IMG/VR virus record: IMGVR_UViG_3300005263_000012
Location: 1 to 25,430 of that record
Origin: a virus
Strand: one strand, 5' to 3'
DNA: 25,430 bases
Shown here: piece after piece, positions 2,127-23,020 of the stretch
Layout: each line of letters starts with the position of its first letter
How positions within the stretch are numbered: the first letter of the stretch is position 1
Notes under the pieces: model-generated
Seen by the model: only the letters and a program-made list of their open reading frames with translations
Told to the model about the DNA's origin: nothing
Databases searched by the model: none
Position numbers and translations under genes: made by a program

Positions 2127-3161
2127 TTAAGACAGTGATATTGAACCATCGGCTGAACCAAGAGCCTCTTTAGGGATATCAGTGTTCCCTTCTATCGAAT
2201 CTCTTTCTCCGATAGATTGAACTATGTTGACATCTTTATTTGCTATGTTAAAAGCGGCATTGATATCAGCATGATCAACGTGTCCGCATGTCGGACACTT
2301 AAACTTTTTTCCATTCCTGTTGCCTATAAGTCCACACCTGCTACAGCTTTTGCTTGTATAACGTGGATCAATATAGACAACTCCAACCCCTTGTATTTTG
2401 GCTTTGTATTCTATAAACATTTGAAGTTGATAGAATGACCAACTATTCAAAGAGTATCTGAATGATCTTGCATGTTTGTTATTATTCCTTATTCCGGTTA
2501 AATCTTCAAGTTTAATTCCACTGTTATTCTGTACTGCAATTTCCACAATTTTTCTACTGATCTTATGGTTAAGATCTTTTACAATCCGACTTTCCCTGTC
2601 TTTTATTTGTTTTACCTTTCGGTATTTACCTTTCTTTTGTAGGGATTTCCTGATATTTTTATACTTTGTGTGGATATGCAATCCTTTCTTACCGAGTTTC
2701 CAGACTTTGCCGGTTTCAGGATTAGCAACCGTAGCTATATGCCCTGTCGTATTCCTGTCTACTCCGACATAGTTTGTAGGCTTCTGTACTTCGGTTTCAG
2801 GAATAGTTACAGAAACATAAGCAAACGTTTTCCCTAATTCTATTTGGTTAATCTTTTCAAATTCTGGAAATTGATATTCAAGAGCCAGTTTTACACATGG
2901 AATTTTGATTATGTGCTTATCAACATCTACTTTTATACCCTGATTAGGGACAGTTAATTTGATGTTCTTGACAGATTTAACCTTTTTATTCCTTGCATAT
3001 TTTCTCAAAATCTGATTAGATATCATGGATTTCAAGCCAATATGAGCAACATCTTTTGATGATAATGTCCTATATTTGATGCCAAACTCCGCTACCTTTC
3101 TTGCTTTTTGTAGTTCCTCTGAGAAATCTCTATCATGTTTAATTTTATAAGTTAGAATCAT
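2127..3161 (-). CDS. tnpB: TnpB RNA-guided nuclease (compact, 344 aa)
   Basis: RuvC motifs VGVDRN / IKLEDL / HADINAA, Zn ribbon CSRC...CPTC, and YTSKSC. Confidence 0.93.
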   Translation of the reverse strand: MILTYKIKHDRDFSEELQKARKVAEFGIKYRTLSSKDVAHIGLKSMISNQILRKYARNKKVKSVKNIKLTVPNQGIKVDVDKHIIKIPCVKLALEYQFPEFEKINQIELGKTFAYVSVTIPETEVQKPTNYVGVDRNTTGHIATVANPETGKVWKLGKKGLHIHTKYKNIRKSLQKKGKYRKVKQIKDRESRIVKDLNHKISRKIVEIAVQNNSGIKLEDLTGIRNNNKHARSFRYSLNSWSFYQLQMFIEYKAKIQGVGVVYIDPRYTSKSCSRCGLIGNRNGKKFKCPTCGHVDHADINAAFNIANKDVNIVQSIGERDSIEGNTDIPKEALGSADGSISLS

Positions 3162-3571
3162 TTGTTTTTCTGCTCCTCGATATATTTCTTCACAACATCA
3201 AGAGTTACAGAACCTACTGAGGATATGAATTTTGAAAGTGTCCATAATGTAGGAAGCTTCTTTTTTAGTTCAGGAAATTCCTCTCTTAATTGTTTTGAAG
3301 TATATCCTTTGATTTTTGATACAACTGAATAGACCCCAATTTTAGGGTCTACATCAATTAACAGGTGTACGTGATCCGGCATTACCTCCATATCAAGAAT
3401 CTCATACTGGAATTCTTCTTGCTTTTCAAGAATAAGCTCCTTTAATCTTTCAGCTATCCTACCTGTCAATACTTTTCTTCTATACTTTGGACAAAAGATT
3501 ACATGGTACTGACAGCTAAACACTAGATGTTTACTGCTTTTGTATTTTTTACTTTTATTTTGTATTTCCAT
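3158..3571 (-). CDS. tnpA: IS200-type Y1 HUH transposase
   Basis: YHVIFCPKYRR, HUH motif DHVH, KGYTS, catalytic Tyr in KKYIEEQ. ATGA overlap with tnpB. Confidence 0.96.
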   Translation of the reverse strand: MEIQNKSKKYKSSKHLVFSCQYHVIFCPKYRRKVLTGRIAERLKELILEKQEEFQYEILDMEVMPDHVHLLIDVDPKIGVYSVVSKIKGYTSKQLREEFPELKKKLPTLWTLSKFISSVGSVTLDVVKKYIEEQKNK

Positions 3572-3794
3572 TTAACCATAATAGTATATGCGTTTAACCT
3601 ATATATTAATTATGGTATATGCAAAACTAGCAGTTATTTAAAAAGGGATGGTTTGAAAAGTTGACGGCATTCATCCCAATGCTAAAGCCTTTGGGCTTTC
3701 TGCCTTCGTACCGTAAAAAACCGAAGAAATAATTAAAATGTGAAATATTTATCTTTTAAAAGTTTCATTTTTTCCTCTTTCTTTATATCAATAT

Positions 3795-4004
3795 TTAAGA
3801 CAACTCAATACTTTCAACATAATCTTTCCATGCCAAAACAACCGCGTTGTATGTCCTTTGATCTTCGACTTTTAACAAATTCTCGGGTATTTCACATTTA
3901 AAATTCATTTCTTTTTCATAGTATTTAGGGAGTAAACTGAATTCCCCGTTTACTATTTTTTTATAAAATTCTATAAAAGACCATGCTTTATCATATGCAA
4001 TCAT
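3795..4004 (-). CDS. Hypothetical protein
   Basis: 69 aa, ATGA-coupled to the upstream ORF. Confidence 0.6.
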   Translation of the reverse strand: MIAYDKAWSFIEFYKKIVNGEFSLLPKYYEKEMNFKCEIPENLLKVEDQRTYNAVVLAWKDYVESIELS

Positions 4005-4279
4005 TTGTTTCCTCGTTTCTTATTATATTTCATCAGCTTCCTATTAACCTTATTAACCCGCCTGGTAACTTTATTCACTACCGGAGCAAGTACTTTATCA
4101 GCCATCGTTAATTCTCGTTTCTTAGAGGCTGCCTGAGCTTCTAAACTAAGATCAGCTTCCTTGAGCATTTGGTTATAAACTTCAAGCTCTTTAAGATAGT
4201 CTTCATCTGTTTTTGCAGCCTCAAGTTTTTCAAGTTGACTGTTTAGAGCTTCAGTTTGTTGTTTAATTTCATTAGTCAT
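4001..4279 (-). CDS. Hypothetical coiled-coil protein
   Basis: 92 aa, helical and E/K/L-rich with a basic tail. Overlaps the methyltransferase stop. Confidence 0.65.
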   Translation of the reverse strand: MTNEIKQQTEALNSQLEKLEAAKTDEDYLKELEVYNQMLKEADLSLEAQAASKKRELTMADKVLAPVVNKVTRRVNKVNRKLMKYNKKRGNK

Positions 4280-5072
4280 AACTAATTTCCTTTTGTTTGA
4301 TTATATATATCTGCTGAAACCAATCACTCTTTGACTTAATAACCTCAAAATCTCCCTCTATAACCTCTTCGAGCTTCTTATGATTAAAACCCATATGTGT
4401 ATAATATGGCCTCCATAAATGTTCAATATCCTTAGTATCATTCAAAAAAATACACTTAAGCAAACTTGCAACAGGCAAACTAAGAATCTCTTTTTTATTC
4501 CCTAAATTAAATAAAACCTGCCCGACTGCCTGAAAAAGAAAGCTAAAACCTGTCATTTTTGGCACAGAAATAACAATGATACCGTCATCAATAAGCGCGG
4601 AAGCCTCCTTCAGAAATGTACGTTTGTCCTCATACATGGTTGTCCAATGTTTACCCACGTGTTCTAAAACTTCCATCAAGAATATAATTGAATATTTGCT
4701 TTCTCCTAACTCTTGTTTGATCTCCTTGAATGATTTATCATGATTGCAGATTATGGAAACGTTCTCAAGATGTTGATTGTACACGGCTTTCCGTGCTTGT
4801 TCTACGAATCTAGGATCATATTCTACCCCTACGACTTTATTAAAGTATTTAGATAATGACGGGATAAAGGGACCATCTGCGCAGCCAATATCTATTACAT
4901 TGGCTTTATGGAAGTATTTTGATGTCAATTTTAGGGCAATTTCAAAATGTCTGCGTTTGATTTTTGAGGTGACTCCTGGTTGCAGATAGTTGAAATGTGA
5001 GTAAGATTTCGCGCCATTGTATCCTTTTTCGGTGAATTTTATTATCGGGGGTGGGACATATAACTCATTCAG
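4272..5072 (-). CDS. Class I SAM-dependent methyltransferase, probable CTG start at 5072
   Basis: Motif I VIDIGCADG, VVGVEYD, EVLEHV, IVISVP. The frame stays open 48 codons upstream of the track start, to GGTGA-taat-CTG. Confidence 0.85.
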   Translation of the reverse strand: MNELYVPPPIIKFTEKGYNGAKSYSHFNYLQPGVTSKIKRRHFEIALKLTSKYFHKANVIDIGCADGPFIPSLSKYFNKVVGVEYDPRFVEQARKAVYNQHLENVSIICNHDKSFKEIKQELGESKYSIIFLMEVLEHVGKHWTTMYEDKRTFLKEASALIDDGIIVISVPKMTGFSFLFQAVGQVLFNLGNKKEILSLPVASLLKCIFLNDTKDIEHLWRPYYTHMGFNHKKLEEVIEGDFEVIKSKSDWFQQIYIIKQKEISYD

Positions 5073-5082
5073 ATTATCACCT

Positions 5083-5361
5083 TCATTTTATGCTTATCAA
5101 TTGTAGATACAGAATTAATAACCCTATCGACACGCCGATACAAAAGAAAGAACAAATCTTAAGAATCAATACCTCACGCTTTAACCTGTCAACCGGAGAA
5201 TGAGGAAATAGCTTACCTCTCCAAGATTCATCATATCTAATGCGTTCTTCCATCATCGGAAGTATCATATACTGATAATATGGATCATCCTGTACTTTTG
5301 CAAGTACTTCTTTTAGAGCGTTTCCTGCTTCTTCTGTGGTTATGCCTCCAAAGTTATCCAT
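5083..5361 (-). CDS. Small membrane protein with a C-terminal TM helix
   Basis: Hydrophobic C-terminus (ICSFFCIGVSIGLLILYL). GGAGG RBS. Confidence 0.65.
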   Translation of the reverse strand: MDNFGGITTEEAGNALKEVLAKVQDDPYYQYMILPMMEERIRYDESWRGKLFPHSPVDRLKREVLILKICSFFCIGVSIGLLILYLQLISIK

Positions 5362-5495
5362 TATCTTAAAATCCTCCGTATCGACGACCAGAGCTTACTG
5401 TGTACATATCCACGTGCTATCCCTTTTGCAGTTACCTTTCTTCCAAGAACTAATTTTTTAAATATGTGAATTGGTAAAAACTGTGTAAATTTCAT
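5361..5495 (-). CDS. 44-aa basic microprotein (not in track)
   Basis: MKFTQFLPIHIFKKLVLGRKVTAKGIARGYVHSKLWSSIRRILR. GAGG RBS and TAATG coupling to the next gene. Confidence 0.5.
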   Translation of the reverse strand: MKFTQFLPIHIFKKLVLGRKVTAKGIARGYVHSKLWSSIRRILR

Positions 5496-5592
5496 TGTGA
5501 AACCTCTTATCTAACTCAATCTCTTATTCCATACGCAATCACTTATTAATATATTAAATTAAATATATTACACTTCGTAAGAATTATAAGGC

Positions 5593-6474
5593 ATGAATAA
5601 CTACCAAAATCGAAATAAATCCTTTCTACATACTGTTTTTACAAATCATTCAACTGTTAAATTGTTACAAAGTTCCATCATGATTTCCCTGTCTGGAACA
5701 TTCCGAATTTATCTTGCTTCACTCTTATTAGGTTCATCGGTTTCTCTGTGTCTATGTCTTGCAGGTGGACTTATAATTTACAGTGTCTACACACTTGATA
5801 GAGCTCTCGGCTGCAAAGAAGATATTGTGAATCGTGCTGAACTTTCAAATTCCTGCAAGGATGTAGGGATTGTTGCTTCTCTGGTCACCTTCCTGATAGG
5901 TAGTTTCATTTTTTCACGATATAACATCTTATGGCTTGCGTTTTTTCCATTTATCACAGGATATCTATACAGTAAGGGGTTGCAGCTATTCGGATTTAAT
6001 CTAAGGCTCAAGGCTGGCATCGGAGTGAAGAACCTAGTAGTTGGCCTTACATGGGGTATATTTCTCGCGTTGGTGAGCCTCTCAGACATTCGATATTTAA
6101 GCTCGCCCGTTGCTGTATTTATCCTGTACGGTACAAAGACCTTCATAAATTCAATAATTGATGATTTCAAGGATATCAAAGGAGATACTCTTGCAGGAAT
6201 CAAGACCATTCCAATAAGCTTAGGAAAACAAAAAACTCGAAATGTACTTCTCGTATTACACATTATAGCTCACCTTATTATTTTCAGTATGTTTCTAAAT
6301 GGAATAATCTTATGTCCTGCAATCATCTTATTTAGTTTTCTTTTTGGGTTGGTTTGTATTCTGAGATACACAAATGAACAAAATTATATTAATAGAAAAT
6401 ATGAAATGTGTATTTTTAAGGATGGTGAATCTTTCTTTACATTGTTGTTTATATACTGTTTTAATTTTATTTAA
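5593..6474 (+). CDS. UbiA-superfamily membrane prenyltransferase
   Basis: Many TM helices. Motif 1 YTLDRALGCKEDIVNR and motif 2 DDFKDIKGDTLAGIKTIPISLG (DxxDxxGD). Confidence 0.9.
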   Translation: MNNYQNRNKSFLHTVFTNHSTVKLLQSSIMISLSGTFRIYLASLLLGSSVSLCLCLAGGLIIYSVYTLDRALGCKEDIVNRAELSNSCKDVGIVASLVTFLIGSFIFSRYNILWLAFFPFITGYLYSKGLQLFGFNLRLKAGIGVKNLVVGLTWGIFLALVSLSDIRYLSSPVAVFILYGTKTFINSIIDDFKDIKGDTLAGIKTIPISLGKQKTRNVLLVLHIIAHLIIFSMFLNGIILCPAIILFSFLFGLVCILRYTNEQNYINRKYEMCIFKDGESFFTLLFIYCFNFI

Positions 6475-7318
6475 TTTTCACTATTTCTTTTTCCATTTTA
6501 TAGTCTACGTGTTCCGTTTCCATCTCGATTTTTACAGAGATATCTTTATAATATTCAAATAGTTGATCCCCCCAAGACATAGATTCAAAATCATGCCCTT
6601 CAAGATCGTTCAGGTTATCGTAACATTGTGTATTTTTATTATATAACCCAATTGACAAGAACGGCCCGTTATCTCCACACATCGAGGAAAATGCAATTTT
6701 TATGTCATCGTCACATACATATATATGAGAATTTTTATTTTTTAGAAGTTGCTCCAATTTATCAGGATATTTATTTATGATTTCATCATATACGTCAAGT
6801 GTAACTATAATTTCAAGTTGTACCGGCTTACTTGAAATCTCAATAAACACATCAATCCAAAAGGGATTAATTACAGATGTTACACCTTTTATTCTGGATG
6901 CGCTTTTAGCAATTTTAATAAAGTCCGGGTGGGGCTCCCCTATTGTATAATTCTTTGTAACTGCGACATGGCATGATTTTAATTTCCTGATATCTAGTAA
7001 CAGCTTTTGTGGGATTACTGATAGGTCGTGGTTGTCCCAAAATTCTTTATTTGAATCTATTGCGGCAGTCGTTTCATAGAATATCTCAAGATAATGGGCT
7101 GCAATATTTCCAAGCTGAGTAAGTGTATACAGATCTCCAGCTTTCTCAATAATACCATTTAACTCTAATTTTTTAAGATGTGGTTGAATTTCAGGGGTTT
7201 TTAATCCCAAATGGTCTTTGATTTCATCTAGTTTTTTTGGGCCATTGATGAGATATAATAGTGCATCCCTCCTGATACCTGAAAATGTTAGTAAATCTAT
7301 GGTTCCATTTATTTCCAT
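6467..7318 (-). CDS. wHTH + DUF1724 (FilR1 middle-domain-like) transcriptional regulator
   Basis: N-terminal ArsR-like wHTH (SGIRRDALLYLINGPK..PHLKKL..YTLTQLG), FWDNHDLSVIP and WGDQLFEYYK, typical of Methanosarcinales DUF1724 proteins. Confidence 0.85.
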   Translation of the reverse strand: MEINGTIDLLTFSGIRRDALLYLINGPKKLDEIKDHLGLKTPEIQPHLKKLELNGIIEKAGDLYTLTQLGNIAAHYLEIFYETTAAIDSNKEFWDNHDLSVIPQKLLLDIRKLKSCHVAVTKNYTIGEPHPDFIKIAKSASRIKGVTSVINPFWIDVFIEISSKPVQLEIIVTLDVYDEIINKYPDKLEQLLKNKNSHIYVCDDDIKIAFSSMCGDNGPFLSIGLYNKNTQCYDNLNDLEGHDFESMSWGDQLFEYYKDISVKIEMETEHVDYKMEKEIVKIK

Positions 7319-7319
7319 A

Positions 7320-7454
7320 TTAAATCCCTCTCTTTTTAATCAAAATCCTTTTATTTCTCAAATACGTTATACGTTTAGGGTCCCTTTCCTCACGAAGAGC
7401 CCTATCATTTTCCAAAAGTTTAGTACGCTGGCGTTCCTGTCCGAATGTCAGCAT
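7320..7454 (-). CDS. 44-aa basic microprotein
   Basis: MLTFGQERQRTKLLENDRALREERDPKRITYLRNKRILIKKRGI. Ends 1 nt before the regulator ATG. Confidence 0.4.
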   Translation of the reverse strand: MLTFGQERQRTKLLENDRALREERDPKRITYLRNKRILIKKRGI

Positions 7455-7567
7455 TTTACTCTACCTTCTTCTTGTTGTCTTGCTTCACGTTTTGCATCAA
7501 GAATATCAAAGATCTCTCCGTTTGAGACTGTTTCTAGCAGGTGGTTGTATTCTACTTCGAGATCCAT
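7448..7567 (-). CDS. 39-aa microprotein
   Basis: MDLEVEYNHLLETVSNGEIFDILDAKREARQQEEGRVKC. ATG directly follows the upstream TAA. Confidence 0.5.
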   Translation of the reverse strand: MDLEVEYNHLLETVSNGEIFDILDAKREARQQEEGRVKC

Positions 7568-7693
7568 TTAACATTCCTTCCTGCCTCTCTTCTTCATCTC
7601 TCTTACTCTCATTGCCCTAGGCTTCTTCTTATCATACCTAATAGCAATTGCCGGATTTCCATCCACTACAACTTTGAAAGTTTTTACATCCAT
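7568..7693 (-). CDS. 41-aa basic microprotein
   Basis: MDVKTFKVVVDGNPAIAIRYDKKKPRAMRVREMKKRGRKEC. GGAG RBS. Confidence 0.5.
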   Translation of the reverse strand: MDVKTFKVVVDGNPAIAIRYDKKKPRAMRVREMKKRGRKEC

Positions 7694-7695
7694 AC

Positions 7696-7821
7696 TCAAC
7701 GCTCCATAGTTTGAAGCACTTCTTCCATTACTGGAAACACGCTAACAACATTACATGCAAAGCGCATTTCATCTTTGAGATCTCGGAGCTTTTCAGGAGT
7801 CAGATCTAGTGTTAATATCAT
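7696..7821 (-). CDS. 41-aa microprotein
   Basis: MILTLDLTPEKLRDLKDEMRFACNVVSVFPVMEEVLQTMER. ATGA overlap with 7818..8264. Confidence 0.55.
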   Translation of the reverse strand: MILTLDLTPEKLRDLKDEMRFACNVVSVFPVMEEVLQTMER

Positions 7822-8264
7822 GATTCAAGACCCCTTGAAATATGTCCGTTTATGCCATCAACACACACATTGAACAAACAATCCCGATTAGACGGTATAG
7901 AACATTCTATTTGATCCCAGTTAACAGGGGTTATTTCCTCGATTGAAATATGGCTGTAGTTTCCTTTTTTGAATACGTTCTGGAGATCTCTGTAAGAATC
8001 TTGCCGCCATGCTGAATCGTGATAACACAAGAATGAGAAACCTTCTTTTTCAGAGAAGAAGAGTTTTTGATTCAGCATACCGAGAACTAACTTATAGTTT
8101 GATCTTGCGTAATACACCAGATGGTAAAAATAATCTATTTCGTTTACATTTTTATTGTTGAGACGGAGCGTGATTGCACAGCCGTTGTATTCATTTGTTT
8201 TATAGATAAATGCCTCAGCTATGGCGTTACATGAATTTGTAATATTATAAGCATCTATTAACAT
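7818..8264 (-). CDS. Hypothetical protein
   Basis: 148 aa, GGAGG RBS, part of the coupled operon. Confidence 0.7.
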   Translation of the reverse strand: MLIDAYNITNSCNAIAEAFIYKTNEYNGCAITLRLNNKNVNEIDYFYHLVYYARSNYKLVLGMLNQKLFFSEKEGFSFLCYHDSAWRQDSYRDLQNVFKKGNYSHISIEEITPVNWDQIECSIPSNRDCLFNVCVDGINGHISRGLES

Positions 8265-8267
8265 TAT

Positions 8268-8396
8268 TCAAGCCTCCAGACTTTTCCTTTTCCCGGGATA
8301 CCAACACTTTTCAGGATATTTCACACCTATACAGCCTGTACAATCTGTGCTTGAAGCACATTCTGAAAGTGTTTCATAGATTGTTACTGTAATCAT
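8268..8396 (-). CDS. 42-aa Cys-rich microprotein
   Basis: MITVTIYETLSECASSTDCTGCIGVKYPEKCWYPGKRKSLEA, 4 Cys. ATGA overlap. Confidence 0.5.
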   Translation of the reverse strand: MITVTIYETLSECASSTDCTGCIGVKYPEKCWYPGKRKSLEA

Positions 8397-8515
8397 GCTT
8401 TCACAACCCTCAAAAAATATGCAAGATCTCTAGTATCCATAATTTCAAGCAACCTTGAAGCAGGAATACTATATTTCCTAAGTGAAGCCCGACAAAACCG
8501 TCTAATGTTAGTCAT
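8393..8515 (-). CDS. 40-aa microprotein
   Basis: MTNIRRFCRASLRKYSIPASRLLEIMDTRDLAYFLRVVKA. GGAGG RBS within the end of the HNH gene. Confidence 0.5.
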   Translation of the reverse strand: MTNIRRFCRASLRKYSIPASRLLEIMDTRDLAYFLRVVKA

Positions 8516-8517
8516 GT

Positions 8518-8973
8518 TTAAGCCTCCGCACACATTCTTACATACATCCCGAATTTTTCTATTGCGCCTTCTATACCTTCAAGATATCGAATAATATCCA
8601 GGTCAATATTTCCCCTGTCAACGCTCATATGAATTGAACAGTGACACGTCGGACACAGCATAACTATCTTGCCATATTTCCCGCCCTTGCTTTGTGGAAT
8701 TACATGGTGTTTTGTTAGCACGCTCGTGACTGGATATCCACAGATTTCGCATGATTTTGGTTTTGATATTTTGAAATGTTTGAACTGGTCTGCCGGGAGA
8801 GTCTTTTCTAATTTTGCGTGTACGCCGTGGTATTGAGAATATACTCTTTGAGCACGTAAGGTATGTAGTGTACAATTTTCATAATGGTTATAGAGTGCAT
8901 TTACAAGGCAATCGTTTTGCACTATTTGATTCCTTACTTTTTCAGATAGTAGGATAGATGCCATATTGCACAC
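8518..8973 (-). CDS. HNH endonuclease
   Basis: CEICG...LTKHHVIPQSKGG...IVMLCPTCHCSIH. Confidence 0.85.
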   Translation of the reverse strand: MCNMASILLSEKVRNQIVQNDCLVNALYNHYENCTLHTLRAQRVYSQYHGVHAKLEKTLPADQFKHFKISKPKSCEICGYPVTSVLTKHHVIPQSKGGKYGKIVMLCPTCHCSIHMSVDRGNIDLDIIRYLEGIEGAIEKFGMYVRMCAEA

Positions 8974-8976
8974 TCC

Positions 8977-9108
8977 TTAATATGTCACCATCTCGTATGT
9001 TATTCCGAGCCGCTCAAGCTTTGAACAGTATCCAGCCGCTTTATCTGCATCTCGGAAGGTTAGAACGTTCATGCCTCCACGAGTTGAAACTAGGATGAAA
9101 GGAAGCAT
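8977..9108 (-). CDS. 43-aa microprotein
   Basis: MLPFILVSTRGGMNVLTFRDADKAAGYCSKLERLGITYEMVTY. Abuts the upstream TAA. Confidence 0.55.
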   Translation of the reverse strand: MLPFILVSTRGGMNVLTFRDADKAAGYCSKLERLGITYEMVTY

Positions 9109-9441
9109 TTAATTCCGCTCCTGAATCCTATTCATTTCATCAACGATTTTTAATGCATTATTATATGATTCCATGAATTCTTTTGCATGTTCAGGTCTAA
9201 CATTCATACTTGCAGAATTTATTATCACATCACCTATTCTGATATAGTCATCTCCGACTCTTTCAACCGTGTTATAATAACTGATGCTTATTTTACTGTG
9301 GTTGTTTTGGAAGGAGGCTGTTTCACCATAATTTCCACAAATGTAACTTTCATCATAGCCGAGAGATTCAGCGAATTTTTGAACTTCTTTGAGTTGTTGG
9401 AGGGTCAGTGGATTCATTTCAATCATCATCTCTTTTCTCAC
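9109..9441 (-). CDS. Hypothetical protein (true start may be ATG 9417)
   Basis: ORF track. Member of the leftward operon. Confidence 0.65.
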   Translation of the reverse strand: MRKEMMIEMNPLTLQQLKEVQKFAESLGYDESYICGNYGETASFQNNHSKISISYYNTVERVGDDYIRIGDVIINSASMNVRPEHAKEFMESYNNALKIVDEMNRIQERN

Positions 9442-9555
9442 TCTTTCGGCTGTTCTTTATCCTTGCATTTCTGGCATTTACTGCCCTGGTTGGTTGGTTT
9501 GATTTTATCATTATTTTCATCTCCGATTATTTTATTAGCGCAACATTAAAAAATT

Positions 9556-9858
9556 TTAAAGATAATAATTAACTCTGTACTCTCCCCACTCTTTATGAAA
9601 ATCATCCCAGGTTCTAAGATATGATTTTCCATCTTTCAGTTTGATTCTCATAAGACCAGGTGCAACTGTCTCAAATTCGGTTCCATACTTTTCATAGTAA
9701 TAGTTCATTCCTTTCAGGAGCCACGCTTCAAACTCTAATGGTTTGTCGAAAATGCTTTTTTGTCCTGATGGGTTTCTGATTTTCCATGAGTTGTGCTGAA
9801 CTCCAGCTATTCTGCCTAGTTCTTGATTTGTTGCTGAGATTGCATTTTTGTAGGCCAT
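9556..9858 (-). CDS. Hypothetical protein
   Basis: 100 aa, GGAG RBS, directly downstream of repeated promoter A1. Confidence 0.7.
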   Translation of the reverse strand: MAYKNAISATNQELGRIAGVQHNSWKIRNPSGQKSIFDKPLEFEAWLLKGMNYYYEKYGTEFETVAPGLMRIKLKDGKSYLRTWDDFHKEWGEYRVNYYL

Positions 9859-9890
9859 TTGTTGCGCTCCGTTGTGTTTCGTGTAAATAG

Positions 9891-9944
9891 TAATAGGCTT
9901 TCAAAGTATTTATAGTTTACTATGTGTCTGACACAAAGTAAATG
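9891..9944 (-). promoter_or_regulatory. Repeated promoter A, copy 1
   Basis: 51/54 identical to 10492..10545. Minus-strand TATA-like CTATAAATA is preceded by the palindrome TGTGTCAGACACA. Confidence 0.75.
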
Positions 9945-9953
9945 CAAAAAAAA

Positions 9954-10181
9954 TTAGTCTGGTATTTTCTTAATTTCCTCTTTCAATACTTGTACATATC
10001 CACATTTACAAAAGTAGTTAGGCGTTATTGATTCTCTTTTACCTTCGTCATTCATTACTTTTGATTGAGATTTATACATCGATTTCCCACATTTTGGGCA
10101 CTTTGGGCGGGGGTTTTTACCTTCTCCTGTGCCTGGGTTTGGATATGCCTTTGGTGTGTTTCTTTTTCGTTTTACTGTCAT
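9954..10181 (-). CDS. Basic zinc-ribbon protein
   Basis: CPKCGK...YFCKCG. Confidence 0.7.
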   Translation of the reverse strand: MTVKRKRNTPKAYPNPGTGEGKNPRPKCPKCGKSMYKSQSKVMNDEGKRESITPNYFCKCGYVQVLKEEIKKIPD

Positions 10182-10182
10182 G

Positions 10183-10464
10183 TTACACTTTTACTCCATA
10201 TTTTTCTGCATACCATTTAGTAGTGCGCTCGCTCATCTGTCTAAAATCATCTTCCATCTTTTTCATTCTTCCAAAGACTGCTTCCCTGTTAGCTGCAACA
10301 TAATTCAACTTTTCAACATCTTTATCAAGACCATATTTCTTCACGATTACAGGCCATTCATGCTTTTGAGCTTTATAAAGTTCATCCCAGAAATCTAAAT
10401 GAATCGTTGGGACATTATTATTCTGTTTAAACATTGGTTTTGATTTTGACCTGTATCTGAACAT
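10183..10464 (-). CDS. Hypothetical protein
   Basis: 93 aa, AGGAGG RBS, downstream of repeated promoter A2. Confidence 0.7.
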   Translation of the reverse strand: MFRYRSKSKPMFKQNNNVPTIHLDFWDELYKAQKHEWPVIVKKYGLDKDVEKLNYVAANREAVFGRMKKMEDDFRQMSERTTKWYAEKYGVKV

Positions 10465-10491: not shown

Positions 10492-10545
10492 TAATAGGCT
10501 TTAAAAGTATTTATAGTTTACTATGTGTCTGACAGAACGTAAATG
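10492..10545 (-). promoter_or_regulatory. Repeated promoter A, copy 2
   Basis: Near-identical copy of 9891..9944, about 28 nt upstream of ATG 10464. Confidence 0.75.
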
Positions 10546-10665: not shown

Positions 10666-12021
10666 ATGACAAAATCAATAACGGTAAACTCGTCAATAGA
10701 CGACACGGTAAAACTACAAAAACTAATCGACGCAAACGGCAACACTCCCGCGAAATTTGATTTTCAAGGAGATGAACTAGAAATCAACTCCTTGCTACGC
10801 TTTTTTAATTTCGCTGAAGTTGCGGGTAATGGAATTACATTTAGACTCATGGAAAATGCGCCTGTCAATCCATTTGGTGAGCAAGTCCCACTGACAGGAA
10901 CAAAATACCCGAAAGGAGCTGAGGGGCTATGTTTCCATGACATTATATTTGAAGGCAACAGGGACATTCAAAACAAGGTTCCTAAGAAGAACGGTAAAAA
11001 TTGGGGTCTAGGCTATCATAATTTTATCGGTCTTGGAACAATCTCAAGCATTGAATTTTCAAATGCTGTTAACTGTATATTTTACAATCTGGAATTTAAC
11101 AATTCGTTAGGAGACGGCATTAGACCAGAAGGCGCGACTAATATTATAGTACATGACATCAAGGGTAAACGTACCGGCCACGACACCATAAACTACTCAG
11201 CCGTAAAAGGTGGAGAAGTCTATAATGTGGACCTTATGTTGGGTGTTGGCTCTGGTGTCCGTATGAGATCCTGCCAGAACATCAAGATACATGACTGTAA
11301 GCTTGATAATTCAATGGGATTGACGTATGGCCCAGGTATCCAGATACAGAGTACCGCCGTCAACTGGACCGGCTCAAACATTGAGATCTATGATAATACT
11401 ATCCTAGATACATATGGCCCAGGAATCCAGGTTGCCGGCAGCGTCAAGAATAACGGTCTAATCGGCATCCATAATAACCTCTTTTTAAGATGTGGAGCAA
11501 TGCCGGAAAGTGTGAACCGCCCAATTCTGGGGGGAGTTGCTTTCATGGGATTCCCGGTTCAAATCTGGAATAATACTATTGTGGATTCTTACGGGTTTGG
11601 CCTTGTTGCTGGTGCTTATGATGTTGGTTCTAACTATTCTTATGATGCGACGATTGAACGAAATATTATAACAGGAACTCGAAAAGCGAAGAAGGTGGGT
11701 ACTGCCTCTGGCACTGCAATCGCAAATCTGGTAGGATCAAAATATAATGTTACGTGTTCTGAAAACTGCCTATATGGGAACCTTGCAGAAGTGTATGGAG
11801 TCAAGAATGTTAATGGCGTCTTAAAAGATCCGCTTTTTACAGGAGACTACCGCCTCAAGGAAAATAGCCCTTGTAGGCTCCCAGGCTATCAGCTAGGATG
11901 TTATACTGACAGTACAAACCCAGATGAAGAAACCAGTCTTATGATTTCATCAGATGCAGACTCGATTAATAAAATAATCAATTCACTTTCTAAGGAGTAT
12001 ACCATTTACAGGAGTAAGTAA
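10666..12021 (+). CDS. Right-handed beta-helix protein, disaggregatase-related; no signal peptide
   Basis: PbH1-type repeats (GDGIR, NIKIHDC, NIEIYDNTILDTYGPGI, IHNNLF, RNIITGT, ENCLYGN, DPLF), resembling the Methanosarcina disaggregatase-related domain. Confidence 0.75.
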   Translation: MTKSITVNSSIDDTVKLQKLIDANGNTPAKFDFQGDELEINSLLRFFNFAEVAGNGITFRLMENAPVNPFGEQVPLTGTKYPKGAEGLCFHDIIFEGNRDIQNKVPKKNGKNWGLGYHNFIGLGTISSIEFSNAVNCIFYNLEFNNSLGDGIRPEGATNIIVHDIKGKRTGHDTINYSAVKGGEVYNVDLMLGVGSGVRMRSCQNIKIHDCKLDNSMGLTYGPGIQIQSTAVNWTGSNIEIYDNTILDTYGPGIQVAGSVKNNGLIGIHNNLFLRCGAMPESVNRPILGGVAFMGFPVQIWNNTIVDSYGFGLVAGAYDVGSNYSYDATIERNIITGTRKAKKVGTASGTAIANLVGSKYNVTCSENCLYGNLAEVYGVKNVNGVLKDPLFTGDYRLKENSPCRLPGYQLGCYTDSTNPDEETSLMISSDADSINKIINSLSKEYTIYRSK

Positions 12022-20182: not shown

Positions 20183-20225
20183 TTACTATATACAACGTAA
20201 TAGTATATATAAGTAACTGATAACT
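20183..20225 (-). promoter_or_regulatory. Repeated promoter B, copy 1
   Basis: 43 bp identical to 21257..21299. Minus-strand TATA box CTTATATATA. Confidence 0.75.
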
Positions 20226-20562: not shown

Positions 20563-21216
20563 TTATTCTTCCTCGTTTGCTTCTTGAAGTTCTTCCTGAA
20601 TCCACTCTAGTTCTTTTTTGTAGTCGCTGGAATCCATATTAAGGATCACAACATCACCGGACTCAATTGATTCAATTATTTTTTAAAGTGTTTTTTTGTC
20701 ATCCAGATCCGCGGTCAACAGGTCAATTCCATCATTTTCAAGATACTCTGATAGATGCTGCTTTCCTTCAAAAGCTCCGAGGACATCAAATGAATATAGA
20801 TAATCATGTGTTGGTGCTTCACGTAGCTTTTCAAAGTCTAGATTCCACAACAGTTCCTCGGATTCGGTGGTAAAATTGCCTTTCCAGTTTGAGCCGTCCC
20901 ATTCTGCCTCGAATCCTTCTCCGGCTTTTTGGATAATTGGCTTTATCTCATCGTCATAAAACTCTTTAAATCTGGTGAAGTCTGTGTCTTCTGGAAGGTT
21001 ATACCGGCTTGCTAGTCCATGCCATATCTTACTAGGGGTAGAATTTGTATCCATTACGGTTTCAATTTTAACTTCCTTGGATTCCCAATCGACGTATAGG
21101 CAAATTCTGCAAAGAGAGTGCCCGTTATTGTTCATTGGGTCGGCTTCCCAGAATTGGGTAGCGGTCCAGTCATCAACATTCTTGTTAATCAATCCAAATT
21201 CATTGTTCTCACTCAT
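20563..21216 (-). pseudogene. Highly acidic protein with an in-frame TAA at 20683-20685
   Basis: The 177-aa ORF continues in frame after the TAA for 39 codons (KIIESIESGDVVILNMDSSDYKKELEWIQEELQEANEEE) of the same acidic composition. Confidence 0.6.
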
Positions 21217-21256: not shown

Positions 21257-21299
21257 TTACTATATACAACGTAATAGTATATATAAGTAACTGATAACT
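21257..21299 (-). promoter_or_regulatory. Repeated promoter B, copy 2
   Basis: Exact copy of 20183..20225, upstream of ATG 21216. Confidence 0.75.
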
Positions 21300-21647: not shown

Positions 21648-23020
21648 GTGAACTACCCCTAAGCTAAAGACTTAGGGGCTTCCTGGTTCATTCCTTGAAC
21701 TTTTGTTCACAAGTCCCCAGGCTCTTCCTCGCGTTCCGCAAGTGTTGAATAGGTTTCAAACACCTATTAGGTTTTGATCTATGAGAGCGAATTTCTTAAT
21801 GTTAATAGCGGCATTAATATCTCTATCTAACACGGTTTTACAGTCTGGGCAAGTCCATTCTCTGTCCTTTAATGTCAAATCAGAGTTATGATATCCACAG
21901 ACGTTACAAAGTTTAGAAGAAGGCTCAAACCTACCTATTCTTAGTATGGTTTTTCCTACCCAATCGGCTTTATATTCTAGTTTTGTTACAAAGCTACTCC
22001 AAGCAGAATCACTAATAGCCTGTGCAAGACAATGGTTTTTCTGCATACCTTTAACATTCAGAGTTTCCAGAGCTATTGCTTGGTTTTCGCTGATAAGTTT
22101 AGAAGAGAGTTTGTTCTGGAAATCAGTTCTCTGATTAGTTATTTTGTCGTGGAGTACAGCAAGTCTTTGTTTAGCTTTTGCCCTGTTTTTAGAACCTTTT
22201 TGTTTCTTCGAAACTCTTTTCTGTAATACTTTGAGTCTCTGAAGAGAATTTTTCAGATATTTAGGATTCTCTATTTTGTCACCTGTAGAGAGGACAGCAA
22301 AGTCTTTGATACCAACATCTATTCCTACAGTAGTAGTTTCTGAGAAAGACTGCTTTGCTGGAAGTTCTTTTCCGTCTTCAACAAGAATACTAATATAGTA
22401 ATGCCCTTTACATGTCCTTGAAACTGTAGCTGTTTTAAGCTCTCCATCAAATACTCTGTGAAGAACTGCTTTAATGGGTTCTATTTTAGGAAGCTTTACA
22501 GTGTTGTTTTCAAAGTCTACTACATAATGCTGTGGAATAGGAAAAGATTGTATAGGATTCTTTTTTGATTTGAACTTTGGAAATCCTGTTTTCTCTCTAA
22601 AGAATCTAGTGAAAGCAGATTCGACCTGTTTAGTCATTCCCTGTAATGATTGTGAATTTACTTCTCCTAACCATTCATTAGAAGCCTTCAAAACTGGAAT
22701 TAATTTGTTTAAGTCAAATCTCGAAATTGATTTTCCTGTTTGTTCGTATGTTTTAATTTTTTGATCAAGTGCCCAATTATAGACAAACCTACAGCTACCA
22801 ATGTGTTGATTCAATTTAACGGCTTGTTTTGTTGTAGGATAGAGTCTAAATTTGAACGCTTTCATCATACAAGGTATTATATGGTTTAACAGCATATATA
22901 GTTTTTGGTAAAATTGGAAATGTTAGTAAAGAATCTGCCGAATATTATATACGGAAGCAAGGTTAAGTTGACGCTTATATCCCGCGAAGCTGAAGACTTC
23001 GGGGTTTTACGCTTCGACCT
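21648..23020 (-). mobile_element. tnpB-only IS200/IS605-family (IS1341-type) element, inserted 3' of TTAT
   Basis: Left end TTAT|AGGTCGAAGCGT-AAAA-hairpin CCCCGAAG..CTTCGCGGG. Right end GAAG-CCCCTAAG..CTTAGGGG-TAGT-TCAC|. Guide/cleavage pairs AAAA/TTAT and GAAG/TCAC are consistent. Confidence 0.9.
21756..22895 (-). CDS. tnpB: TnpB RNA-guided nuclease
   Basis: KAFKFRLYPT N-terminal HTH, RuvC motifs VGIDVG / IALETL / DRDINAA, Zn ribbon CNVC...CPDC. The start is probably at MMKAF. Confidence 0.95.
   Translation of the reverse strand: MLLNHIIPCMMKAFKFRLYPTTKQAVKLNQHIGSCRFVYNWALDQKIKTYEQTGKSISRFDLNKLIPVLKASNEWLGEVNSQSLQGMTKQVESAFTRFFREKTGFPKFKSKKNPIQSFPIPQHYVVDFENNTVKLPKIEPIKAVLHRVFDGELKTATVSRTCKGHYYISILVEDGKELPAKQSFSETTTVGIDVGIKDFAVLSTGDKIENPKYLKNSLQRLKVLQKRVSKKQKGSKNRAKAKQRLAVLHDKITNQRTDFQNKLSSKLISENQAIALETLNVKGMQKNHCLAQAISDSAWSSFVTKLEYKADWVGKTILRIGRFEPSSKLCNVCGYHNSDLTLKDREWTCPDCKTVLDRDINAAINIKKFALIDQNLIGV

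Follow-up and report, generated by a model that had tools for sequence, protein, structure and literature searches.

The convergent gene pair at 5593-7318 of the window (the whole stretch of DNA analysed, 25,430 nucleotides, positions 1 to 25,430 of IMG/VR virus record IMGVR_UViG_3300005263_000012) is probably a module of two genes derived from the host, belonging to the moron or auxiliary-metabolic-gene (AMG) type and consisting of a PRK13591 UbiA and its dedicated wHTH-DUF1724 regulator. Loci and trees, compared at the level of sequence, indicate a core gene pair that is vertically inherited in the chromosomes of Methanosarcinaceae and Methanoperedens and was captured once by a lineage of tailed Methanosarcina viruses, both genes jointly and together with the ubiA promoter core. 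The same comparisons indicate that the viruses keep both genes under purifying selection while relocating the cassette within their genomes. An earlier note on this DNA had instead proposed a candidate viral signalling system, in which the pair may make and sense a small-molecule signal. Feature coordinates are collected in Table 1.

Table 1 Features of the convergent pair and its surroundings (positions in the window)
Feature	Position	Strand	Details
ubiA promoter region	5496-5592	+	conserved box TATATTAA at 5550-5557, 43 nt before ATG; AT-rich TATA-like box downstream
Direct repeat pair ACTCAATCTCTTATT / ACGCAATCACTTATT	5514-5547	+	19-nt spacing; candidate regulator binding site
24-nt AT-rich palindrome, over conserved promoter box	5547-5570		12-nt arms, 92% complementary, no spacer; candidate operator
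UbiA-superfamily membrane prenyltransferase, PRK13591/NF010117 family	5593-6474	+	293 aa; stop TAA 6472-6474
Tail-to-tail overlap of both coding regions	6467-6474		8 bp; ORF calls, TAA stops
wHTH + DUF1724 (FilR1_middle) transcription regulator, UbiA-linked orthologue group	6467-7318	-	283 aa; stop TAA 6469-6467
Tightly packed viral ORFs	7320-8264	-	directly upstream of regulator; 148 aa, then four of 39-44 aa

The prenyltransferase and the regulator

The source virus has a genome of 101.7 kb with a CheckV completeness of 100 and carries TerL, tape measure and head proteins as virus hallmarks, corresponding to a tailed Methanosarcina virus of about 100 kb. ParA was found, as were two IS200/IS605 elements within the window; no integrase gene was present among the scanned ORFs of the source virus, and phage and plasmid DNA collections searched with positions 4000-9000 of the window returned zero matches. 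The description of UbiA as a lone plus strand gene in a minus-strand block was borne out for 2127-10464, where every other ORF kept lies on the minus strand.

UbiA was assigned to its superfamily by a PF01040 match (47.1 bits, E 2.4e-12; Pfam cut-off 34.2) and to its family by NCBIfam NF010117 (325.7 bits versus a cut-off of 238), with residues 9-281 aligned to profile positions 18-293 of 307. The NCBIfam models for DGGGPS, MenA and ChlG scored below their cut-offs (35.4 versus 296, 28.9 versus 277, and 37.4 versus 313 bits, respectively). The AF2 model was all-helical with the polytopic UbiA fold (pLDDT about 88, pTM 0.87), for which Foldseek gave TM values of 0.57-0.62 to 6m31 (DGGGPS), 7bpu, 4od4 (ApUbiA), 4tq3 (AfUbiA) and UBIAD1 8djk. 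Sequence identity to 6m31, 4od4 and 4tq3 was 13-15% at a TM of about 0.6, and a PDB sequence search returned nothing useful for UbiA or the regulator. Given 49-55% identity to the chromosomal Methanosarcina proteins, UbiA is, as judged from its sequence, the virus's version of a gene that is core in Methanosarcina. Grouping with housekeeping DGGGP or quinone synthases had been named beforehand as an outcome that would speak against a signalling role; the enzyme does group with a housekeeping host orthologue, but according to NCBIfam this is no DGGGP or quinone synthase.

All family-invariant residues are retained in the viral enzyme, including D69, E76, D77, D191, D194 and D198. The second Asp-rich motif is a canonical DxxDxxxD (D191, D194 and D198 in DDFKDIKGD), whereas the first is a family-specific LDRxLxxxEDxxNR in place of NDxxDxxxD, with D69, E76 and D77 invariant among 50 sequences. 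Unusual chemistry is therefore possible for this enzyme, given its non-canonical first motif.

The regulator matched FilR1_middle (PF08350; 93.9 bits versus 27, E 1e-26) and HTH_5 (24.8 versus 22, E 1.9e-5), and thus has the wHTH-then-PF08350 architecture of Msr-type DUF1724 regulators, the wHTH also being visible in its AF2 model (pLDDT 88.3, pTM 0.81). The protein begins directly with the wHTH, and no Pfam match to a REC domain, as expected of a FilR1-type response regulator, was found in it. Foldseek placed the model nearest to TrmBL2 (5bpi, E 1.3e-9), also matched it to TrmB 3qph (E range 1e-9 to 1e-5), and assigned a PLD-like fold to the C-terminal domain. An HKD catalytic motif in this domain was ruled out, as the His is conserved and the Lys is not. 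Residues 268-283 are disordered; this C-terminal extension occurs only in the viral regulators and is missing from all chromosomal copies.

One Methanosarcina genome encodes 18 full-length DUF1724 proteins, and the viral regulator was assigned among such paralogues by scores, tree, adjacency and convergence to the UbiA-linked orthologue group. Its top match within a Methanosarcina genome was the UbiA-adjacent paralogue (173.6 bits, runner-up 129), and the profile of the UbiA-linked group gave 433 bits, compared with at most 272 for the other DUF1724 paralogues. A word-based homologue search with the regulator found four proteins only, because the regulator evolves fast (36-37% identity to host copies; branch length of 1.72 for the regulator of the window), and the regulators for comparison were drawn from the UbiA loci instead of from the homologue search.

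Conservation and history of the cassette

A PRK13591-family UbiA scored above the cut-off in 38/41 Methanosarcina genomes and in 108 of the 251 genomes of the class. UbiA is followed directly downstream by a convergent regulator belonging to the same group at 70 of 75 chromosomal loci, which span six named genera (Methanosarcina, Methanolobus, Methanococcoides, Methanomethylovorans, Methanohalobium and Methanoperedens). Only purH is conserved as a further neighbour (57 loci), and in Methanosarcina UbiA usually lies beside it. The M. mazei pair, AAM30596/AAM30595, is flanked by a P-type ATPase and purH; judged from accession order, the two are probably MM_0900 and MM_0899, and a literature search with the locus tags gave nothing relevant.

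Eight of nine other distinct viral-clade loci likewise have a convergent regulator of the same group, as does every related viral contig long enough for checking. The viral-clade regulators are full length in five loci, split in one (L015) and cut by the contig end in another (L038), while at L010 the contig stops inside UbiA. In the split regulator the C-terminal part is divergent, and one chromosomal UbiA of the viral clade has no regulator at all, which shows that an intact partner is not required for UbiA to be kept. More distant UbiA-regulator pairs were also found on contigs labelled Methanoregula and Methanomicrobiaceae. The gene-neighbourhood survey suggested by the earlier note thus yielded conserved linkage, far above chance, and the linkage together with joint inheritance argues that UbiA and the regulator form a real functional unit. 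A complex prediction for the two proteins scored 0.00, which carries no weight for or against binding.

The overlapping convergent arrangement described earlier was confirmed, including both stop codons (Table 1). Overlaps of 8-47 bp are present in other viruses, of 44 bp in Methanoperedens and of 14 bp in some Methanococcoides, and in Methanosarcina chromosomes the two genes are separated by gaps of 102-747 bp; by this comparison, the overlap is ancestral in host genomes and no viral feature.

In both trees the viral sequences formed a single clade (SH-aLRT 98 for UbiA and 97 for the regulator). This clade falls within Methanosarcinaceae as the sister group of the chromosomal Methanosarcina sequences, the two being joined with a support of 98 for UbiA and 99 for the regulator, and points to one capture of the cassette as a unit. 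Tree placement together with the viral hallmarks identifies a host-derived viral accessory gene of the AMG or moron kind, and with the loci and the count of Methanosarcina genomes it argues against a viral origin of the pair. The viral relatives share TerL (54-67% identity), a disaggregatase-like protein (73-81%) and further genes with the source virus, and the neighbours of the cassette differ among them, being terminase, ParA, head genes or tail genes. Values of dN/dS were 0.09-0.28 for UbiA and 0.15-0.16 for the regulator, and the GC content of the viral cassette copies is in line with that of the viral genomes.

Within IMG/VR, single-protein scans gave one UbiA relative and no regulator relative, and a scan with the UbiA alignment gave two. 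Methanosarcina sp. T3 has a second UbiA copy, for which a surrounding provirus was considered and discarded: the neighbours are housekeeping genes, and no TerL was found with the query used.

That the cassette is a neutral passenger, host DNA recently acquired without a viral role, is the least probable explanation of all: viruses of such size carry many accessory genes and the two IS200/IS605 elements show a genome that tolerates insertions, but the viral copies are an old, diversified clade (50-55% identity) with dN/dS of about 0.1-0.28 and GC adjusted to the viral genomes, and at least eight distinct related viral contigs carry the cassette, at differing genomic positions.

Gene control and possible functions

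The box TATA[CT]T[GA]A was found 40-45 nt ahead of the ATG in 9/10 viral-clade loci (box positions being listed for viral loci only) and in 28 of 75 loci overall, against a chance expectation of 0.016 per search window. Chromosomal loci have degenerate versions of the box, then AATAATATT, and the ubiA promoter region was probably captured along with the genes. Host loci carry a palindrome, GTATAAT..TTATAC, at the place equivalent to that of the viral palindrome. Both the direct repeat, to which the regulator may bind, and the palindrome occur nowhere in the 101.7-kb virus genome other than at the ubiA promoter.

Upstream of the regulator, the ORF at 7818-8264 is followed by four small ORFs in 7320-7821, most of which overlap the next one by a few bases, and the regulator is probably on one transcript with them. 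Small ORFs abut the regulator start in related viruses too, whereas chromosomal regulators stand alone. The earlier note had placed the regulator last in an operon fed by a repeated promoter; the repeat is real (54 nt, promoter-like, 9891-9944 and 10492-10545, 94% identical), and the position as final gene is plausible from the tight minus-strand ORF chain. A sigma-70 promoter scan of the window was set aside, since the model is not applicable to archaea.

Under the host-derived module explanation, a dimeric TrmB-like regulator would act locally on the repeat or palindrome at the ubiA promoter, much as Msr-type regulators locally control neighbouring methyltransferase operons. Production of the regulator from a viral operon would couple UbiA synthesis to the viral expression programme, with possible further transcriptional interference from the convergent 3' ends. 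UbiA itself would transfer an isoprenoid chain onto a host-membrane acceptor, by which the virus could alter the membrane or the energy metabolism of its host while infecting it or being carried.

The best single guess for the role of UbiA, put forward tentatively, is the methanophenazine pathway. The biosynthetic route to methanophenazine is unsolved, and a part in it has been proposed for UbiA genes (PMC6315138). A UbiA-domain gene tagged MA4010 is down in an rnf mutant of M. acetivorans (bioRxiv 10.1101/2022.07.20.500911); because aceP is MA4008 (PMC2838876) and Methanosarcina genomes commonly have an AceP-like gene, a methyltransferase and UbiA in this order, MA4010 is probably the orthologue of the viral UbiA. 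Another membrane lipid or carrier is an equally open target. The methanophenazine guess is weakened by the pairs on Methanoregula and Methanomicrobiaceae contigs, groups that are not known to have methanophenazine.

The virus might instead need the regulator, either for control of viral genes or for interference with the host ubiA promoter, with UbiA having come along. Fast evolution of the viral regulators, their gain of a virus-only C-terminal tail and their embedding in viral operons would fit. UbiA, however, is kept in every viral locus under purifying selection with all invariant catalytic residues intact; in loci with a defective or absent partner the affected gene is the regulator rather than UbiA, and the candidate binding motifs are absent elsewhere in the virus genome. 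Such a history is unlikely.

We consider similarly doubtful a modification of the envelope or of a receptor, in which UbiA would act on a lipid carrier or envelope precursor and lead to superinfection exclusion or help release across the methanochondroitin layer. Enzymes working on lipid-phosphate carriers are known in the UbiA superfamily, which together with the atypical first Asp-rich motif favours this role, and a disaggregatase-like gene lies near the cassette in the source virus and in relatives. This nearness is not constant among viruses, though, and a core host orthologue with conserved purH synteny suggests a housekeeping product.

A synthase-receptor system, in which UbiA makes a prenylated signal that is bound by the DUF1724 regulator, forming a density or physiology sensor that steers lysis versus carriage, is very unlikely. 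It would accord with the strict linkage and co-inheritance of the two genes, with the regulator's place at the end of a viral operon, with ParA and IS elements suggesting long-term carriage, and with the PLD-like C-terminal fold shared with the TrmB family, whose member TrmB binds sugars as effectors. The cassette is, on the other hand, a core gene pair of host chromosomes and therefore did not evolve for virus communication, and UbiA products stay in the membrane and make poor diffusible signals. No LuxI, LuxR or AimR/AimP features, nor any family of an autoinducer or arbitrium communication system, were found among the Pfam and NCBIfam matches. The candidate operator motifs are confined to the ubiA promoter, which leaves the suggested lysis-versus-carriage switch without a link to the rest of the virus genome. 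The quorum-sensing argument drawn from FilR1 falls as well: FilR1 is a response regulator whose receiver domain is phosphorylated by FilI and which was not shown to bind a signal (PMC3991700), while the viral protein is REC-free and in the Msr regulator family. TrmBL2, the closest fold relative of the regulator, is called an archaeal chromatin protein and not a small-molecule sensor in PDB entry 5bpi. The SAM methyltransferase at 4272-4928, once suggested as tailoring enzyme, was rejected, being a generic class I enzyme (UbiG model 43 bits versus a cut-off of 103) with no homologue beside the cassette of any related virus.

There is likewise only a slight chance that the pair is a small-molecule circuit whose PLD-like domain senses the prenylated product or a precursor, captured by viruses to read or rewrite host membrane or redox state or cell density when choosing carriage versus lysis; were it true, archaeal viruses would have an equivalent of the systems by which phages communicate or sense their hosts.

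For the module of a host-derived UbiA and its own regulator, the finding would imply that these viruses interfere with the isoprenoid-linked chemistry of membranes in an important group of methane producers. Tracing the viral gene to the host also exposes a strictly conserved, uncharacterised PRK13591 UbiA and DUF1724 cassette in most Methanosarcina genomes, other Methanosarcinaceae and Methanoperedens. The enzyme is a concrete, testable candidate for the unsolved methanophenazine pathway in tractable Methanosarcina, and the cassette offers a simple one-regulator, one-target pair for learning what DUF1724 domains sense.

Comparison with known systems

With LuxI/LuxR, arbitrium and FilI/FilR1, the viral pair shares only the convergent enzyme-regulator layout and, with FilR1, the DUF1724 domain; it has no LuxI-type or peptide signal gene, no autoinducer-binding domain, no TPR receptor and no receiver domain. 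The fold of the regulator is that of TrmB and TrmBL2 (3qph, 5bpi), namely wHTH, long helix and PLD-like C-terminal domain, but by sequence it is not a TrmB member (Pfam 17.6 bits versus a cut-off of 25.6). The 283-aa protein is TrmBL2-sized and, judged by size, has no room for the additional sugar-binding subdomain that TrmB carries, and no sugar link is apparent. The Msr regulators of Methanosarcina acetivorans have the same HTH and DUF1724 architecture (PMC11784639) but are different paralogues.

Nearest is the chromosomal pair of Methanosarcina, a UbiA with an 'ArsR-family' regulator, which is like the viral one in families, convergence and promoter box and to which the viral pair is a sister clade. 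The two differ in that the chromosomal genes are set apart by their gap and have a lone regulator, whereas the viral genes overlap and the viral regulator has a C-terminal tail and stands at an operon end; the divergence in sequence is greater in the regulator than in UbiA (identities given above). No report of a UbiA or prenyltransferase gene in methanogen viruses was found in the literature searched. Phage AMGs and morons are likewise host-derived metabolic genes that are under selection and occupy variable positions; the present case differs from them in that a dedicated transcription factor and a promoter moved along with the gene, and in that the carrier is an archaeal virus.

The gene pair and its encoded proteins

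The window covers the opening 25.4 kb of one virus record of 101,744 bp (CheckV completeness 100%), the genome of a tailed virus of Methanosarcina-like methanogens. Its structural and replication genes include those for a large terminase, for head morphogenesis, for a tape measure of 1302 aa, for tail spike-like proteins and for a replicative helicase; it also has genes for ParA, an HNH endonuclease and a beta-helix protein related to disaggregatase, and two elements of the IS200/IS605 type. The presence of insertion sequences in it suggests that the virus resides in cells for long periods. A perfect 43-nt direct repeat, its copies 1074 bp apart, flanks a region with a further ORF.

Between 2127 and 10464, all retained ORFs except ubiA lie on the minus strand. 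Because the stop codons fall at 6472-6474 (ubiA) and 6469-6467 (regulator), the two coding regions share their last 8 bp, tail to tail, in agreement with an earlier note, which had described a lone plus-strand UbiA gene converging with a wHTH-DUF1724 gene. The regulator gene stands at the end of a packed minus-strand ORF chain and is therefore plausibly the final gene of a viral operon; a 54-nt promoter-like element is present twice. An HNH endonuclease gene lies about 1.2 kb upstream of the regulator, with a gap of 253 bp before the packed chain.

Features of the cassette region and of mobile or repeated elements in the window
Feature	Position	Strand	Remarks
TnpB/Cas12f-like gene	2127-3161		IS200/IS605 unit
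Y1 transposase gene	3158-3571		same IS200/IS605 unit
Direct repeat	5514-5547		upstream of ubiA; candidate regulator target
24-nt palindrome	5547-5570		upstream of ubiA; candidate regulator target
8-mer TATA[CT]T[GA]A	5550-5557		upstream of ubiA
UbiA ORF	5593-6474	+	293 aa; Pfam UbiA 2.4e-12
wHTH-DUF1724 regulator ORF	6467-7318	-	283 aa; Pfam FilR1_middle/DUF1724 1e-26; N-terminal ArsR-type wHTH
Packed ORF chain 5' of regulator	7818-8264, then four ORFs of 39-44 aa	-	most overlap the next ORF by a few bases
HNH endonuclease gene	8518-8973	-	
54-nt promoter-like element	9891-9944; 10492-10545		
43-nt direct repeat	20183-20225; 21257-21299		perfect
ORF between the 43-nt repeats	20683-21216		
Second TnpB-like gene	21756-22895		full-length

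The viral UbiA scored 325.7 bits on NCBIfam NF010117 (PRK13591; cut-off 238) and far under the NCBIfam cut-offs for DGGGP synthase, MenA and chlorophyll synthase. Its AlphaFold model (pLDDT 88) has the UbiA fold, with an identity to every solved member of only 13-15%. Of its two Asp-rich motifs, the second has the canonical form and the first the family-specific form LDRxLxxxEDxxNR, and all residues invariant in 50 family members are present; the nearest named relatives are chromosomal Methanosarcina proteins (49-55% identity). The regulator was modelled with a pLDDT of 88.3 as TrmBL2/TrmB-like along its full length, the C-terminal domain adopting a PLD-like fold. Among the 18 DUF1724 paralogues of a Methanosarcina genome, its best match is the UbiA-linked one. 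All viral regulators carry a C-terminal tail of 15-25 residues, predicted to be disordered and found in none of the chromosomal ones, and it is through this tail that the gene overlaps ubiA. The virus thus conserves both members of a pair: an enzyme of UbiA fold, from an uncharacterised family core to the hosts, and its dedicated regulator.

Linkage in host chromosomes and related viruses

In M. mazei, the next gene downstream of the UbiA orthologue (AAM30596) is a wHTH-DUF1724 gene convergent with it (AAM30595), and the pair stands among housekeeping genes, with a P-type ATPase on one side and purH on the other. A scan with one genome per species yielded 75 loci, the genera represented being Methanosarcina, Methanolobus, Methanococcoides, Methanomethylovorans, Methanohalobium and Ca. 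Methanoperedens; it also gave three distant ones, whose labels read Methanoregula, Methanomicrobiaceae and 'uncultured archaeon'. Using a profile built from seven regulators, a regulator was found directly downstream of UbiA on the opposite strand at 70 of the 75; loci without a match were a contig end, a disrupted UbiA, the MAG contig L065 and a second UbiA copy in Methanosarcina sp. T3 (L017). The only other widely conserved neighbour was purH (57 loci). Above cut-off, the UbiA family was present in 38/41 sampled Methanosarcina genomes and in 108/251 genomes of the class. Methanosarcina chromosomes have a gap of 102-747 bp between the two genes and no overlap; tail-to-tail overlaps occur in Methanoperedens (44 bp) and some Methanococcoides (14 bp), so that overlapping ends, which the earlier note had likened to those of luxI/luxR pairs, are no viral peculiarity.

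Apart from L017, most other contigs with the closest UbiA relatives are virus-like, by terminase, ParA/ParB, disaggregatase-like or tail-like genes or by IMG/VR source, and have many genes in common with the virus under study (e.g. TerL, 54-67%; disaggregatase-like protein, 73-81% identity). The regulator overlaps the UbiA 3' end by 8-47 bp on every long-enough viral contig except L015 and L016. The genomic surroundings differ from virus to virus, and the cassette therefore stays one unit while viral genomes rearrange.

Several relatives deserve separate mention. L015 (7198-8049) and L016 (3506-4357), representing one related virus, have the regulator split into an HTH ORF (86% identical to the nearest viral relative) and a separate divergent DUF1724 ORF (only 42%), with a 285-bp gap to ubiA instead of the overlap, which could reflect decay or recombinational domain replacement. 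L011, a 96.7-kb contig with the cassette and ParA in a MAG labelled Parabacteroides (GCA_028707405.1, JAQWBH010000001.1), has a disaggregatase-like gene 73% identical to that of the virus under study, and is almost certainly a mis-binned relative of it. On the contig L008, two small ORFs (11335-11996) are 99% identical to positions 50908-51569 of the virus under study, the remaining common genes reaching only 37-67%, which suggests recent small-module exchange between related viruses.

Origin of the viral cassette

In the UbiA tree, the viral sequences, together with a short MAG contig and the second copy of Methanosarcina sp. T3, formed one clade (SH-aLRT 98). This clade had chromosomal Methanosarcina as its sister group (joint support 98) and fell inside Methanosarcinaceae; the chromosomal portion agreed with taxonomy. 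The regulator tree agreed, with support of 97 for the viral clade and 99 for the joint one, both being quick trees with long viral branches and an unresolved branching order inside the viral clade. Where dS was unsaturated, dN/dS came to 0.09-0.28 in UbiA and to roughly 0.15 in the regulator, and the GC content of viral cassette copies matches that of the viral genomes. The simplest history is a single, old capture event in which an ancestor of these viruses took up the two genes together.

The T3 copy (L017:3959-4876; G002:C1:2319118-2320029) lies between Tsr3/SLOG genes and topoisomerase I and is followed not by a DUF1724 regulator but by two unassigned ORFs (90 and 94 aa); a search of the T3 genome with the TerL of the virus under study found none. 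It looks like the enzyme alone returned from virus to host.

Promoter, function and the signalling proposal

Upstream of chromosomal ubiA, a footprint common across genera consists of TAGTTyAAT, a palindrome of the form GTATAAT..TTATAC and, some 30 nt ahead of the start codon, a TATA-like AATAATATT. The 8-mer TATA[CT]T[GA]A was found 40-45 nt before the ATG at 9/10 viral-clade loci and at 28/75 loci overall (chance expectation about 0.016 per window), and the core promoter appears to have travelled with the genes. The direct repeat and the 24-nt palindrome, the putative target of the regulator, occur nowhere else across the 101.7-kb virus genome. Tandem arrays directly 5' of ubiA, with four copies of a ~19-nt unit (CATTAAACTACTATTA...) in the virus L013 (upstream of 6001) and four TAGTTTACTTAGCTAA-like units in the Methanosarcina MAG L033 (upstream of 3959), may represent amplified binding sites of the regulator.

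A reasonable candidate for the UbiA product is methanophenazine; against it count distant UbiA-regulator pairs on contigs labelled Methanomicrobiales, a group not known to have methanophenazine. The methanophenazine pathway has yet to be solved, and a part in it has been proposed for UbiA genes (PMC6315138). An M. acetivorans rnf mutant shows lowered expression of a UbiA-domain gene cited as MA4010 (bioRxiv 10.1101/2022.07.20.500911). As aceP is MA4008 (PMC2838876) and Methanosarcina commonly has an AceP-like gene, a methyltransferase gene and UbiA in this order, MA4010 is probably the M. acetivorans orthologue.

The earlier note had proposed a viral synthase-receptor signalling system, and the linkage and co-phylogeny it named as checks were found, the convergent arrangement and the agreeing trees supporting a functional pair. 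That this pair serves signalling is nevertheless improbable, nothing else pointing that way; the pair is a host core cassette. The methyltransferase at 4272-4928, suggested as a tailoring enzyme, was rejected as a cassette partner, being of a generic type and unlinked to the cassette in related viruses. The analogy with FilR1 breaks down as well: the receiver domain of FilR1 is phosphorylated by FilI, signal binding by FilR1 not having been demonstrated (PMC3991700), whereas Pfam detected no receiver domain in the viral regulator. Neither Pfam nor NCBIfam gave a match to known signal-synthase or receptor families, and the candidate operators are restricted to ubiA within the virus genome. By analogy, the regulator would instead control ubiA locally, like Msr-type DUF1724 regulators, which control neighbouring operons. 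The Msr regulators of Methanosarcina have an HTH + DUF1724 architecture (PMC11784639).
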